A stretch of DNA of 64,000 bases, from sequence record OR427838.1; one strand, given 5' to 3'. The notes beneath the pieces are model-generated. The model was given only the letters and a program-made list of their open reading frames with translations, had not been told where the DNA came from and made no database searches. The DNA is from Escherichia phage fDHCT2. Below are positions 25,307 to 34,993 of the stretch, one piece after another (the stretch's first letter is position 1; each line of letters begins with the position of its first letter). A program made the position numbers and the translations under genes.

Positions 25307-25795
25307 TTATCTATAAGCAGCCCAAGTACCTGTTTTAAATGTTGAAATCACGCGCTTAGCACGATTAGGAGTTTGTTTATACCAACGGGATTGAGCCAGG
25401 TTAACTGCGGCATCATCCCAACGTTTCTGTTGGAGCATACGCAGAGAGTTGGTAAATCCTGCTACACCAGCTTCGCCCATTTGGAAGACCATGTTAATTA
25501 AAGCACAACGACGAACTTCGTCCAGCACATCATAAACAGGTTTCAATTTAGGATTACGCAGAATAGCTCTACGAGCATTATCAACCGACCGGTTAAAGAG
25601 TTGTTCTGCTTCAGCCATAGTAATACGACCATTACAAACTCGACCCATAAGCTTATCAAGTTCAGCGCGGGCAACATCTTTAGATGGGTTCTTGGTAACT
25701 AACTGGCCAATACCAATAGTCCAATAACCTTCAGTGTCTTTATAAAGATTTAAATCAAGACCTTCGTCTTGACGTAACATATCAAAAATATCCAT
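25307..25795 (-). CDS. e: Endolysin (T4 lysozyme)
   Basis: 162 aa; [35 protein letters not shown]...[18 protein letters not shown] matches T4 lysozyme. Confidence 0.95.
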
Positions 25796-25797
25796 AA

Positions 25798-25825
25798 TAC
25801 CTCCTGAGTATAGGAGGTATTTATA
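25798..25825 (-). promoter_or_regulatory. gene e late promoter (TATAAATA) abutting an SD-sequestering hairpin
   Basis: minus-strand TATAAATAcctccTATACTCAggaggta tt ATG; perfect 7-bp stem containing the SD. Confidence 0.7.
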
Positions 25826-28085: not shown

Positions 28086-29045
28086 TTATTTTTCGAAAGG
28101 ACGAATTAAATGATGGTTATCTTGGAAACGCTTGATGTAGTCGTTTTCACCTAAAGTCTTATACATATTCACTACAGCTTGGTAGTTTTCCCAGGCGTAC
28201 TCGCGGAACCAACCTGAAGTGATTGAGGTACACACTTTCTCAAGAGCCATATAAAAACTTAATGATGGTGAAATATTGAAGTCATTAGGAACCTGTGAAC
28301 GTTCTAGTGCCAGGACACAAGTTTCTTCATATACACCAGCCAGTTTAATAGCTTCAGGCAAAGCCTCGAACTTCTCACGAGAGGTCATGACTTCAGAACC
28401 TTCCTTCATATAAAAGGTATATGCAGGGCGTCCAGCCAATGCTACTGCTTCATGAATAGAGTCATGGTCCAGCGTATAAATGGTATCATTAAAGAACGAT
28501 GATTTGTTTACGTCCAATTTAGGGTGAGAATAGCTCAACGTTTCTTTTTGACGTTGCAACATAATTTCCCGGAGTTCTTCGTTCAGGGTGATACCTTTAT
28601 TACGAAGGTATTTGATGTGGGACATAGTTTTCAAGAAGAACGGATTATTCTTCAGGAAACGATGAGAGGTTTTGATAGCCAGACAGATATCAGGGGTTGC
28701 CCAATAGAAACCAGTAAGACGGTCCTTTTTAATATGATTTTCAGCATATTTCAGGAGACGATAACTTGAAGTGAAATCTTCGTCTTGAAGCTCGCCAGTA
28801 ATTTCTCGTACGTTAGTCAGAGCACGGACAATATAAGCTTCAAAATAGGTTTCTTTACCATTGTACATACATTTAAAGGCCTGGACATCAGGGTTATCCA
28901 CAGGAACATGAGCGCCGAACATCCGGGCTTTAAAGTGATTCCATGAGCCTTGGTCGGCAATGAAATCCCAATCAGAATTTTCGATATGCTTACTTTCAAT
29001 CAGACCAGCGTGGTGCAGTGCACGAGAACCAATAACTAGCATCAT
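28086..29045 (-). CDS. hypothetical protein (319 aa)
   Basis: long ORF; no motif I recognise. Confidence 0.5.
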   Translation of the reverse strand: MMLVIGSRALHHAGLIESKHIENSDWDFIADQGSWNHFKARMFGAHVPVDNPDVQAFKCMYNGKETYFEAYIVRALTNVREITGELQDEDFTSSYRLLKYAENHIKKDRLTGFYWATPDICLAIKTSHRFLKNNPFFLKTMSHIKYLRNKGITLNEELREIMLQRQKETLSYSHPKLDVNKSSFFNDTIYTLDHDSIHEAVALAGRPAYTFYMKEGSEVMTSREKFEALPEAIKLAGVYEETCVLALERSQVPNDFNISPSLSFYMALEKVCTSITSGWFREYAWENYQAVVNMYKTLGENDYIKRFQDNHHLIRPFEK

Positions 29046-29058
29046 AATATTTTCCTCA

Positions 29059-29226
29059 TTAATAAAGACGAGTTACTTCATATTTACCCAGTTCAGATTT
29101 TTTTGCTTCAATACGCGTTGCGGCTAGATTAGCAGCCTCTAGTGAAGAAAATTGGACCACTTGGGAAGTATTCTGCCTTACGCCACCTTGTGGGTGAGTA
29201 ACAAAAACAATAAGAACATTATACAT
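29059..29226 (-). CDS. small hypothetical protein (~55 aa)
   Basis: gaggaaa SD + ATG; below track cutoff. Confidence 0.3.
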   Translation of the reverse strand: MYNVLIVFVTHPQGGVRQNTSQVVQFSSLEAANLAATRIEAKKSELGKYEVTRLY

Positions 29227-29247
29227 AATATTTTCCTCAGAGTAAAC

Positions 29248-29487
29248 TTAAATTTCAGCAACGTAATCGTTATGCAATTCCCACATATCATCAGAATTAT
29301 TCTTAATGATAGGAATTATCTCATTAGAGATTTCTTCTGCATAAGGGTCATTGATACAGTGGGCATCTTCAAAACGAACACCGTAATCAGACTTCTTATA
29401 GGCAAAGCCATAAATCTTTTTAAACTTGGCACGACTAATTCGTACCGGCTCATCAGACTTATCAGACAATGGAGAGTAATACCACAT
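29248..29487 (-). CDS. hypothetical protein
   Basis: 79-aa ORF. Confidence 0.45.
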   Translation of the reverse strand: MWYYSPLSDKSDEPVRISRAKFKKIYGFAYKKSDYGVRFEDAHCINDPYAEEISNEIIPIIKNNSDDMWELHNDYVAEI

Positions 29488-29530
29488 ATGTTCTCCTCAT
29501 GTTTGTGTAGGGTAATAGTAACACAAGTTT

Positions 29531-29881
29531 TTAGAGTTGTACATCACTTCTGCAATATTCTAAAAATAATTTATCGTTGTCTACGGTATCCCAACGACGC
29601 CAAGATGGGTTCCAGACCAAAGCGTTGTCACCACAATCATTGAGCTTAAAATGGTCGTAGTACATAGCTATGCGTCTAGTCTCGTCACCGGAGAACCCTA
29701 GTATAGGCTCGCCGTGGGTATGATACATATGATGGTGCATTGAGAGGTCACATTTATAAAACATCTCACGTTTACCACGGACGAACAAGAAAGCTTGCCC
29801 ATTCATATAGAATTCTTTATCCGTTTTCAAAAGATATTTGAATACCGAATCTTTGTGCATAAGTCCTCCTACCACATCCAT
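29531..29881 (-). CDS. hypothetical protein
   Basis: 116-aa ORF. Confidence 0.45.
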   Translation of the reverse strand: MDVVGGLMHKDSVFKYLLKTDKEFYMNGQAFLFVRGKREMFYKCDLSMHHHMYHTHGEPILGFSGDETRRIAMYYDHFKLNDCGDNALVWNPSWRRWDTVDNDKLFLEYCRSDVQL

Positions 29882-29890
29882 GTGATTAAA

Positions 29891-30118
29891 TTATTTTCCT
29901 AACGAAATACGGGTAGGTTTTTTACCAAAATAGTCTTCATAAGAACCATCTAAACGACCTGCTTTAGACCGACAATATGAATCGTACTTTTTGTAATAAG
30001 TCATCTCAGTATTATAACGCGGGTGTCTATCAGCCATAATAATACTTAATGGCCAACCTTTGGCATAATCGCGAAGACTGTTTATTTTACGAATGTATCT
30101 TTTCTTTAATTTTAGCAT
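29891..30118 (-). CDS. hypothetical basic protein
   Basis: 75-aa ORF. Confidence 0.45.
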   Translation of the reverse strand: MLKLKKRYIRKINSLRDYAKGWPLSIIMADRHPRYNTEMTYYKKYDSYCRSKAGRLDGSYEDYFGKKPTRISLGK

Positions 30119-30336
30119 GAGCTCGGATACCAGATTTTACCATCAGAACGAGCAACGAAGGTTCTGCCGGCTTCTTCGCCGTAACAAGAGCTATTCAGCC
30201 AATCTTCAAGACGAACTTCACCATCATAATCATCAAGCTCAACACCAAAATCTTGTGCAGAAGCCATATCTTTTACTTTCTTATACAGCGCAGCCAGTTC
30301 AAGAGCAGCTTTTTCTAATTCATTAATATCAGACAT
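30112..30336 (-). CDS. paralog family member 1 (C-terminal W-x-SS-C)
   Basis: 74 aa ending KIWYPSSC. Confidence 0.55.
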   Translation of the reverse strand: MSDINELEKAALELAALYKKVKDMASAQDFGVELDDYDGEVRLEDWLNSSCYGEEAGRTFVARSDGKIWYPSSC

Positions 30337-30345
30337 TTTATTTCC

Positions 30346-30576
30346 TTAGCAAGACATAGAGGAGTTAAACCAGAAACCCTGGCCATCATTGATACCGTAA
30401 TCACTGCGAATCCAGTCATATTCTTCGTATTCTTCGCTAGAAGCCGGAATATAACGCTGGAAACGGTCTGCGGCGTGTAAATTAAAAATTTCGCCGGTTT
30501 TATCGGCCAGCTGCTCACCTTCACAGATTAGTGCACGGATTTGGTCTTCGATTTCTTTAACAGTTTTAGAAGTCAT
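30346..30576 (-). CDS. paralog family member 2 (C-terminal F-W-F-N-SS-M-S-C)
   Basis: 76 aa ending GFWFNSSMSC. Confidence 0.55.
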   Translation of the reverse strand: MTSKTVKEIEDQIRALICEGEQLADKTGEIFNLHAADRFQRYIPASSEEYEEYDWIRSDYGINDGQGFWFNSSMSC

Positions 30577-30585
30577 TTTATTACC

Positions 30586-30783
30586 TTAGCATTCGTAAGA
30601 GGAGGACACCCAAGAGGTACCACTAATTGTAATACAACCATTATAAAGCGTGATATGACGTTCCAGGTCACGAACACCGTCGATATAGATATCAGCTTCT
30701 TCGCGTTCTTCTTTACAAATCTGGATAACGTTTTCAATAGCTGCGGCTGCAGTACGGATTGCACAATCTAGTTCACGAGACAT
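30586..30783 (-). CDS. paralog family member 3
   Basis: 65 aa ending SWVSSSYEC. Confidence 0.55.
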   Translation of the reverse strand: MSRELDCAIRTAAAAIENVIQICKEEREEADIYIDGVRDLERHITLYNGCITISGTSWVSSSYEC

Positions 30784-30792
30784 AATAATTCC

Positions 30793-31074
30793 TTAACATT
30801 CAGAAGAAGAGGATACCCATCCACCATTTTCTAGGCTGGTAGTGTAATCATGTTGGTTTACAATAGCGTACTGAGCTTCACCGTATTCTTCCCAGTGGGC
30901 CAGGTCAGCTTTCAAGGCGCCAGGAGAATAATAGTCACCGCCCATACCGCGAGCAGGGTATATATTAAAATGAGTCTCATATTTGTTGGCAATTTCCTCG
31001 GCACGACGAATAGCTTTATGGATATCATTTACTGCAGCAGCCAGCTCTTTATTTTTACGGTAATCATTCATCAT
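30793..31074 (-). CDS. paralog family member 4
   Basis: 93 aa ending GWVSSSSEC. Confidence 0.55.
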   Translation of the reverse strand: MMNDYRKNKELAAAVNDIHKAIRRAEEIANKYETHFNIYPARGMGGDYYSPGALKADLAHWEEYGEAQYAIVNQHDYTTSLENGGWVSSSSEC

Positions 31075-31083
31075 AGCGTTTCC

Positions 31084-31374
31084 TTAGCACATTGCCGAAG
31101 AGGAGACCCAAGCACCAACTGTAACGACGCCATTTTCAACTTCACCACCATTGTTTTCAATTTCATCTTTAAACCACTGGGAGCATTCATAACCAACAGG
31201 GTAGTATGTACGTCCTGAGCCATAATCACCTGTTCCGAATTGAATACCGTACTTATCGGCAATAGCTTCACATTTGGATTCGATGGTATCCACTTTATTC
31301 AGAAGAGCATAGATAGCCTTTTCTGCAGATTTCTCGTCATTGTATTCAGGGATTTCAATTTCAATTTTATTCAT
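31084..31374 (-). CDS. paralog family member 5
   Basis: 96 aa ending AWVSSSAMC. Confidence 0.55.
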   Translation of the reverse strand: MNKIEIEIPEYNDEKSAEKAIYALLNKVDTIESKCEAIADKYGIQFGTGDYGSGRTYYPVGYECSQWFKDEIENNGGEVENGVVTVGAWVSSSAMC

Positions 31375-31757
31375 GATTTACATTCCTTAATAAAGGTTTC
31401 AAGGTCATTACGTTTGGTTTGTTTTACATACTCATTATAATTAGCCATCTCTAAAGCATATCTCTTTTTACGTGGCTTGTTTATCCTATTGGTGTTGATA
31501 ATATCCAAGACCAGAGGGATAAAGTATCCTATTAAAGCTGGAACCCAAATCCAGGCAAGGTTCAATTCAAATAGGTTTTGTGTCGTATCATTAACGACTC
31601 CACCAGCAATTAGTCCAACAAATCCGGCAATCGTACCAGTGACAAGTCCAGCGAATAAAGAAATAGCGATATCATAATCTGCTAATGCGTAACCAGGGTC
31701 GGTTTTACTAGGCTTATACATTTTGGACCTCTTTGGCGTATTCGCGGCATTCAGCAA
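31371..31757 (-). CDS. membrane protein
   Basis: 128 aa with two Gly-rich TM helices. Confidence 0.5.
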   Translation of the reverse strand: MLNAANTPKRSKMYKPSKTDPGYALADYDIAISLFAGLVTGTIAGFVGLIAGGVVNDTTQNLFELNLAWIWVPALIGYFIPLVLDIINTNRINKPRKKRYALEMANYNEYVKQTKRNDLETFIKECKS

Positions 31758-34836: not shown

Positions 34837-34911
34837 TGGTATCCCGCCCTGGGATCGAACCAGGACCGCAAACTTAGAAGGATCGTATGCTATCCATTAC
34901 ACCAGCGGGAC
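34837..34911 (-). tRNA. tRNA-Arg (anticodon UCU)
   Basis: hand-folded cloverleaf: acceptor gtcccgc/gcgggat, anticodon loop cuUCUaa, T-arm cctgg-TTCGATC-ccagg, encoded CCA. Confidence 0.7.
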
Positions 34912-34916
34912 ATAGT

Positions 34917-34993
34917 TGGTGACCCGGACCAGATTTGAACTGGTAACCTTTCCCTTATGAGGGGACTGCTGCTAACCATTGAGCTACAGGGCC
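34917..34993 (-). tRNA. tRNA with CAU anticodon (Ile2-lysidine type or Met)
   Basis: resembles E. coli tRNA-Ile2: anticodon loop cuCAUaa, T-arm accag-TTCAAAT-ctggt, encoded CCA; acceptor stem has one mismatch. Confidence 0.6.

Follow-up and report, generated by a model that had tools for sequence, protein, structure and literature searches.

Five tandem Cys-tailed small proteins of an Escherichia phage and the nucleotidyltransferase that is their only conserved neighbour: a tentative two-component module

What do five small genes, lying back to back in the plastic region between the lysozyme gene and the tRNA genes of a T4-type phage, encode, and with what might their products work? The genes belong to Escherichia phage fDHCT2 (OR427838.1), of which we studied a stretch of 64,000 nt (the window, to whose positions all coordinates of fDHCT2 refer), and they form an array of minus-strand open reading frames (ORFs) at 30112-31374 encoding 96, 93, 65, 76 and 74 aa in coding order (genes 1 to 5, Table 1). 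Comparison with related and distant phages revealed that the five ORFs are genuine proteins under purifying selection, and that a gene for a putative nucleotidyltransferase (NTase) is the only conserved neighbour of such small genes across phage families and genome positions. We tentatively favour, with somewhat less than even confidence, a two-component module of small proteins and NTase in which the conserved C-terminal tail of the former would engage the latter.

The window comes from a JS98-like (Dhakavirus) T4-type phage, with 84 phage records matching it at 80-95% nucleotide identity. A preliminary description of the array, made from the sequence, had reported the five ORFs with their sizes, a shared terminal motif with Cys as the last residue and a location in the plastic e-to-tRNA region, all of which we could confirm. 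The array is placed between the lysozyme e/nudE side and tRNA-Arg/tRNA-Met (34837-34993), the lysozyme e homolog being located at 25307-25795 in agreement with the annotated e of T4 and SP18, and in each gene a TAA stop directly follows the Cys tail. The same description had the genes separated by identical spacers carrying a Shine-Dalgarno (SD) sequence, which was right in part: the four spacers (TAA-GGAAACGCT-ATG, TAA-GGAATTATT-ATG, TAA-GGTAATAAA-ATG and TAA-GGAAATAAA-ATG) are all 9 nt long, similar in their letters and provided with an SD sequence, AAGGA or AAGGT, that straddles the preceding stop codon (TAAGGA/TAAGGT), but they are not identical. The window has 265 ORFs of 50 aa or more; ten of them end in Cys, and the ending W..SS.{0,2}C is confined to these five.

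Regular 9-nt spacers and similar junctions (TGY TAA GGW A) could suggest that the ORFs are non-functional and that their common tail arose as a side effect when a DNA unit carrying a stop codon and a translation-initiation region was duplicated again and again. The ratio of nonsynonymous to synonymous substitution rates (dN/dS), calculated against orthologs from six related phages (SP18, VR7, JS98, vB_EcoM_005, dhaeg and Bp7), speaks against this in all five genes, as it is about 0.01-0.25 with dS up to 1.5 (gene 1, 0.03-0.15; gene 2, 0.05-0.25; gene 3, 0.00-0.20; gene 4, 0.16-0.23; gene 5, 0.03-0.16). The motif codons vary synonymously (Ser TCC/TCT/TCG/AGC/TCA, Val GTC/GTA/GTG, Cys TGC/TGT), both Ser codon families being used for the same motif residues. 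Moreover, gene 5 keeps its tail without an SD spacer on its 3' side, where its stop codon overlaps the ATG of the next ORF, and hundreds of distant homologs retain the Cys tail although other sequence follows it, the motif being preserved in over 280 divergent clusters whose downstream sequences are unrelated. The fold prediction described below is confident as well. Low dN/dS and synonymous codon differences within the motif therefore identify the small ORFs as real proteins, a true paralog family constrained at the protein level as first supposed, and the account by duplication, or by nucleotide-level conservation only, is refuted.

The same data argue against the suggestion that the array resembles a rapidly evolving, diversified family, since each paralog has conserved orthologs at these low dN/dS values. 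The anti-defence role considered in the preliminary description would be speculative. The paralog classes are old, being common to RB69, Aeromonas and Enterobacter phages, and a double-motif form such as that of gene 5 is also present in the non-T4-type Phapecoctavirus ESCO13. In ESCO13 (L131 2371-2631) it reads WQSSSCYGEGDEGF ... VWHSSSC, and in ORF058c of Aeromonas phage 25 (L005 4246-4461) DWLSSSCYGEG ... VWMESNC; its additional occurrence in several metagenomic representatives indicates an old, distinct subclass with an internal W-x-x-S-S-C-Y-G element. Close relatives differ instead in the copy number of the array. The ortholog of gene 3 is RB69ORF136c, and phage Bp7 (L045) entirely lacks the gene. 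In JS98 (L042, about 2048-2257) the gene of the 76-aa class is unannotated in GenBank, and an intact 69-aa ORF ending GFWFSSSMSC is present there. The gene of the 96-aa class is split in RB69 (L004, 3989-4295) into ORF139c (71 aa, ending QWYEK) and ORF138c (33 aa, ending AWVSSPALC), in which a motif Ser is changed to Pro; this copy is either a frameshift pseudogene or a sequencing error, whereas an intact 101-aa version (P0030) is found in other Mosigvirus phages.

To delimit the family, we built a profile from 38 close relatives and compared it with 1.84 billion representative proteins at a cut-off of E<=1e-3. This yielded 283 clusters at 50% identity, and tail statistics were taken from 148 representatives read among them. 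The terminal residue is Cys in 138 of the 148, and these 138 carry W at position -7 (136), S at -4 (137) and S at -3 (136), resulting in the tail logo G-x-W-x-[S/P/A]-S-S-x-x-C. A second conserved element has the consensus A-E-x-I-A-D-E-x-G-x-x-F-x-F-x-x-x-Y-G-M-G-G-T-Y-x-P; the conserved elements of the small proteins are this Y-G-x-G-x-x-Y loop and the tail. Gene 2, with phmmer matches in 25 of the loci fetched, has the loop nearest of all classes to the family consensus YGMGGTY. The five proteins of the array are acidic, with a pI of about 4.3-5.2, and the mean net charge of the representatives read is about -8. The AlphaFold2 (AF2) model of the 96-aa protein (predicted local distance difference test (pLDDT) score 91) consists of a helix at residues 14-42, in agreement with the N-terminal helix first described, and a small beta domain, with Trp89 in a beta strand and S-S-A-M as a short terminal helix. 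The five products are thus predicted, from sequence and model, to be small folded proteins with a long N-terminal helix, a small beta domain bearing the loop and an invariant W-x-x-S-S-(x-x)-Cys-COOH end.

Four of the five proteins match phrog_899 (E 4e-10 to 9e-24) and the 65-aa protein matches phrog_4882, both clusters of 'unknown function'. With a profile of 101 diverse members three of the five pass, and the other two are joined to the family by tail, PHROG matches and orthologs in arrays. Pfam and NCBIfam scans of the five proteins gave no match, a Pfam scan of the 101 diverse members gave nothing beyond two isolated weak matches, and PADLOC at E<=0.1 gave no match for the five proteins or the NTase. 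A PDB sequence-profile search with the small family returned only noise (coiled-coil and designed helical proteins), the modelled small protein has no fold similarity to any PDB chain, including thioredoxin-like and other redox folds, and Foldseek against BFVD retrieved only uncharacterised members of the same family; no domain fusion of the Rosetta-stone kind was found among the longest members. The preliminary description had not recognised the family, in line with these searches: it is large, phage-restricted and uncharacterised by sequence or fold. A tblastn search with the 96-aa protein hit 378 phage records with hosts including Escherichia, Aeromonas, Enterobacter, Klebsiella, Shigella and Serratia. 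The e-to-tRNA region of T4 contains neither a small-family member nor an NTase gene, and T4 e.2 and e.3 were checked and found not to be members.

We then examined what accompanies the small genes. The forward set comprised 35 IMG/VR loci retrieved via the small-protein motif together with RB69, Aeromonas phage 25, Enterobacter phage PG7, SP18 and VR7, in which the genes are single or in tandem with up to five per array (1-6 copies overall). A same-strand NTase homolog follows downstream within about 10-1300 nt in 37 of the 38 loci with enough downstream sequence. Clustering of all co-directional ORFs within 5 kb of the arrays gave only two widely shared families, the small family (39 loci) and the NTase family (36 loci), the next being shared by 9 loci. 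In the reverse direction, among 85 loci found with the NTase alone, at least one tailed small gene is located upstream on the same strand in 79 (75 by hidden Markov model and 4 by motif scan); the exceptions are one lineage of close relatives (L104, L105, L108 and L119), Enterobacter phage CC31 (L068) and one 2.3-kb contig.

The pair spans Straboviridae, Phapecoctavirus, Otagovirus, Menderavirus and jumbo-phage contigs, and reaches beyond Straboviridae (Phapecoctavirus ESCO13, Pseudomonas Otagovirus phiPsa397, Acinetobacter Lazarusvirus AM101). The two genes move as a unit between genome positions: they follow nrdD in Aeromonas phage 25 and lie close to gene 41 in AM101 and to DprA/Sir2 in ESCO13, and in Stenotrophomonas phage Mendera (L136 3001-4752) the order is reversed, the NTase gene being followed by a 246-nt gene and two small genes (GWQASSQSC and LWMPSSQEGC). 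The numbers of phage genomes carrying each of the two genes, counted per host genus, are close, for instance 54 and 59 in Aeromonas, 34 and 36 in Enterobacter, 30 and 35 in Klebsiella, and 17 and 18 in Shigella. In bacterial and archaeal assemblies the NTase was found on five contigs of metagenome-assembled genomes (MAGs) only, which are most likely phage DNA.

The NTase of the window has homologs in more than 2000 clusters, nearly all named 'hypothetical', and is itself under constraint (dN/dS 0.05-0.10). Its AF2 model (pLDDT 92.4) displays a nucleotidyltransferase fold closest to MenT1 (the top match), ANT(2'') and TglT. Residues G6-S7, D25-x-D27 and E69, invariant or nearly so in 56 diverse homologs, make up the pol-beta nucleotidyltransferase signature, and as read from the sequence the catalytic triad of pol-beta type is intact. 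The three-dimensional fold is MenT-like, but a Pfam scan at E<=0.1 gave DUF7277 and DUF7275 only, with no AbiEii/DUF1814 match, so the protein was not filed as a member of the MenT family; the GS-to-DxD spacing is 17 residues as opposed to 9-13 in the MenT/AbiEii motif definition (hG[GS]x9-13Dh[DE]h and one more acidic residue), and a PDB sequence-profile search gave no match, MenT chains included. Sequence and model together place the enzyme on a new branch of the nucleotidyltransferase fold, distinct in sequence and closest to MenT and ANT. Invariant residues of its C-terminal half are K125, H128, R165, E168, Y172, H174, D193-H194-D195, H198 and the run GVYEExCVLALER...KVCTSITSGWFRE. This DUF7275 half is far more conserved than the catalytic N-terminal half, and its invariant H128, H174, D193-H194-D195 and H198 recall a metal or phosphate site, for which no structural match accounts.

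Judging from gene order, a functional partnership between the small proteins and the NTase is probable. Under the module reading the small proteins would be cognate partners of the enzyme, their conserved tail entering its active site, and a tail Ser hydroxyl or the terminal Cys may receive the nucleotide. The conserved linkage to the NTase gives weight to the suggestion in the preliminary description that the tail serves as a modification or binding element, and several old paralog classes beside one NTase fit a picture of one enzyme with many substrates. By analogy with structural relatives of the NTase, which transfer nucleoside monophosphate to hydroxyl groups, nucleotidylylation of the tail Ser or Cys is a possible mechanism, which we hold with reserve because the chances are against rather than for it. 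The divergent bodies of the paralog classes might then provide each modified protein with a target of its own. A chemically more elaborate version, which would be a protein-modification system of a kind so far unknown in phages, appears highly improbable: here the NTase would nucleotidylylate the tail Ser, and the Cys would then react by elimination and addition to form a lanthionine-like C-terminal ring, or would carry the nucleotide or a derived group onto host targets. On this view the array would supply effectors armed by the enzyme, every one directed at its own host or defence protein.

Several observations weigh against the module. The case for the partnership draws on gene neighbourhood and on analogy. 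Of the representatives read, about 7% have residues beyond the Cys or no Cys, the spacing between SS and Cys is 0 or 2 residues (SSC and SSxxC forms), and tail conservation could be partly structural, as the model places the Trp in a strand and S-S-x-x in a terminal helix. On the side of the enzyme, the lineage of L104, L105, L108 and L119 and phage CC31 have an NTase and no intact small gene nearby, and remote homologs of about 250 aa matching the DUF7275 region occur with no small Cys-tailed gene in Streptomyces, Gordonia and KVP40-like Vibrio phages (Streptomyces phage Circinus L133, Gordonia phage Engineer L134 and Vibrio phage TCU-VP03-AIR1 L135); such lineages imply that the enzyme can exist alone, and its main substrate may be a different one, for example tRNA or a small molecule. 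Conversely, one jumbo-phage locus (L016) carries a small gene but no NTase gene within 8 kb of it, and in the window itself four unrelated genes keep the array apart from the NTase gene, which is located about 1 kb downstream. With a median pI of 6.1 the NTase is also not basic, an observation of little weight in either direction. In CC31 (L068 3748-3987) the ORF directly upstream of the NTase gene ends QVCYSSSTF with no family-profile match and may be a decayed copy. The DUF7275 homolog of Circinus lies about 2 kb from a polynucleotide kinase gene, and that of Engineer about 1.2 kb upstream of a tRNA cluster.

A first alternative is a different relation between the two partners. The small proteins could be antitoxin-like regulators that block or tune the NTase without being modified, their acidic bodies and tail mimicking substrate in the active site, while the enzyme acts on tRNA 3' ends, another nucleic acid or a small molecule. 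There is a precedent in MenT1, an NTase toxin of M. tuberculosis whose active site is blocked by the 68-aa, long-helix protein MenA1, the C-terminus of which is dispensable (PMC10435456). The small proteins are likewise acidic with a long N-terminal helix, their genes are usually immediately upstream of the NTase gene, as antitoxin genes often are, and in Tevenvirinae the module is near tRNA genes. It is nevertheless difficult to see why one enzyme should have redundant inhibitors in several old paralog classes per genome, each conserved on its own, and the C-terminus that MenA1 can spare is the most conserved part of the small proteins. Furthermore, the small protein resembles no PDB chain in sequence or fold, the NTase lacks an AbiEii/DUF1814 Pfam match, and lineages having the NTase without small genes show that the enzyme is not obligatorily toxic to the phage. 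We consider regulation without modification unlikely, while still deserving attention.

A second alternative dispenses with the partnership. Redox motifs of the SxxC and TxxC kind are known from the N-termini of helices, and the S-x-x-C of the tail, at the beginning of a terminal helix, could be a CxxC-derived reactive-thiol motif of independent thiol proteins serving in redox reactions, metal binding or covalent trapping of targets such as host or defence proteins, the NTase being an inherited neighbour and no biochemical partner. The terminal Cys is the only Cys in most representatives read (79 of 148), which leaves no intramolecular metal or disulfide site possible in these; in the model the short S-S-x-x helix ends at the Cys. 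In Aeromonas phage 25 the genes are found among nrdD, nrdH and nrdC.2, and the jumbo-phage locus has its small gene without NTase. However, only these two families stay together across unrelated contexts, even in reversed order, for which inheritance alone is a poor explanation, the spacing from SS to Cys is not fixed, and no redox fold was matched, which makes the thiol explanation rather improbable.

The expression signals bear on the array and the NTase gene together. A candidate T4-type middle (MotA-box) promoter was located about 60 nt upstream of the first array gene, within the coding 3' end of the e.3-like membrane protein gene that directly precedes the array. Its consensus has 4 matches in the window against 1.1 expected, and a candidate is present at an equal relative position in JS98, vB_EcoM_005, dhaeg and SP18. 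Scanning the minus strand for the late-promoter consensus TATAAATA gave no match over the stretch that runs from the array to the end of the NTase gene; the nearest one on that strand (25818-25825) directly precedes the lysozyme e homolog, in keeping with a late gene. Because of the middle-type consensus upstream and the lack of a late promoter from array through NTase gene, expression of the array is probably pre-replicative. An intrinsic terminator scan detected nothing on the coding minus strand between array and NTase gene; its sole terminator-like match is upstream of the array, inside the e.3-like gene. Packaging in the manner of internal head proteins was considered as T4 has ip genes nearby, and was dropped on account of N-termini without a shared capsid-targeting sequence and the missing late promoter. 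The four ORFs between array and NTase gene were found in close relatives only, with low dN/dS for the two tested.

Table 1. Coordinates of the array, the NTase gene and associated features in the window.
Feature	Position	Strand	Length	C-terminal tail	Remarks
Candidate T4-type middle (MotA-box) promoter	31434..31458	-			Perfect TGCTTTA-N12-TATAAT; consensus match only
Small family gene 1	31084..31374	-	96 aa	GAWVSSSAMC	'YGSGRTYYP' class; phrog_899 E 9e-24
Small family gene 2	30793..31074	-	93 aa	GGWVSSSSEC	'RGMGGDYY' class; phrog_899 E 6e-20
Small family gene 3	30586..30783	-	65 aa	TSWVSSSYEC	Short class without YGxGG loop; phrog_4882 E 2e-36
Small family gene 4	30346..30576	-	76 aa	GFWFNSSMSC	phrog_899 E 5e-15
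Small family gene 5	30112..30336	-	74 aa	KIWYPSSC	Motif twice, DWLNSSCYGEE ... IWYPSSC
Four unrelated small ORFs between array and NTase gene	29059..30118	-	75, 116, 79, 55 aa		Outside conserved core
NTase partner gene	28086..29045	-	319 aa		Pfam DUF7277 residues 2-101 and DUF7275 residues 120-305; phrog_2141

Hundreds of sequenced phages carry this gene pair unannotated, among them therapeutic-type T4-like coliphages and Phapecoctavirus, Acinetobacter, Klebsiella, Aeromonas and Pseudomonas phages. In vB_EcoM_005 (L043 66-2755) and Klebsiella phage vB_KpnM-VAC36 (P0191) the small genes and the NTase are labelled 'major capsid protein', 'prohead assembly scaffold protein' or 'tail completion protein', which are evidently propagated misannotations. 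The literature searched contained no mention of DUF7275, DUF7277, the RB69 and JS98 ORF names, the small family or a link to the NTase, and the connection between the two families, absent from the PHROG and Pfam cluster records, is new here. Linking the tailed small family to a MenT/ANT-like NTase turns an anonymous 'hypothetical' array into a testable hypothesis. Should the partnership be true, it would add a phage-encoded member to the short list of NTases acting on or with small protein partners and may expose new host-takeover or counter-defence chemistry; the minimum gain is a family definition and corrected misannotations.

How does the proposed module compare with known systems? MenAT1 likewise combines an NTase, the closest in fold to that of the window, with a small helical protein. 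It differs in the sequence features of the enzyme given above and in MenA1, which is similar to the window proteins in neither sequence nor fold and has a dispensable C-terminus where these have a conserved tail. In addition, the small genes here form arrays of old paralogs, and the module is phage-only apart from the five probable-phage MAG contigs.

Closer to the acceptor mechanism are pol-beta-superfamily NTases that modify a protein. GlnD uridylylates PII, and CitX and MdcG load a Ser of a small acyl carrier protein (ACP). MntA of the HEPN/MNT system adenylylates the toxin HepT on Tyr (PMC7641770). In these systems a nucleotide or derived group is transferred to a hydroxyl side chain of a small partner encoded nearby, as we propose for the window. 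Sequence features of HEPN, PII or ACP are, however, absent from the small proteins, and their predicted fold is not the HEPN helical bundle; the proposed acceptor would be a Ser or Cys in the extreme C-terminal tail, unlike those of the three systems. ANT(2'') and LnuA act on small molecules without a protein partner, and the NTase of the window differs from them in its C-terminal helical domain (DUF7275), which is much larger, highly conserved and rich in invariant His, Asp, Arg and Tyr residues.

An invariant extreme C-terminus is the working end of small, often acidic carrier proteins such as ThiS/MoaD (Gly-Gly) and LysW (EDWGE), and tandem paralogous genes next to a single enzyme are typical of clusters for ribosomally synthesized and post-translationally modified peptides (RiPPs). 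The tail chemistry of ThiS/MoaD and LysW differs from that of the small proteins, which match neither a beta-grasp nor a zinc-ribbon fold, and RiPP precursors are leader-core peptides, whereas stably folded domains are predicted for the small proteins. Genes for E1-like, ATP-grasp, radical-SAM or lanthionine synthetase enzymes are not conserved in the clustered neighbourhoods, where the NTase gene is the only one. The closest relationships are with PHROGs 899 and 4882 for the small proteins and with PHROG 2141, DUF7277 and DUF7275 for the NTase, clusters without an assigned function of which the window proteins are clear members. By analogy only, the pairing in the window may be likened to the known modules of an NTase and a small protein.

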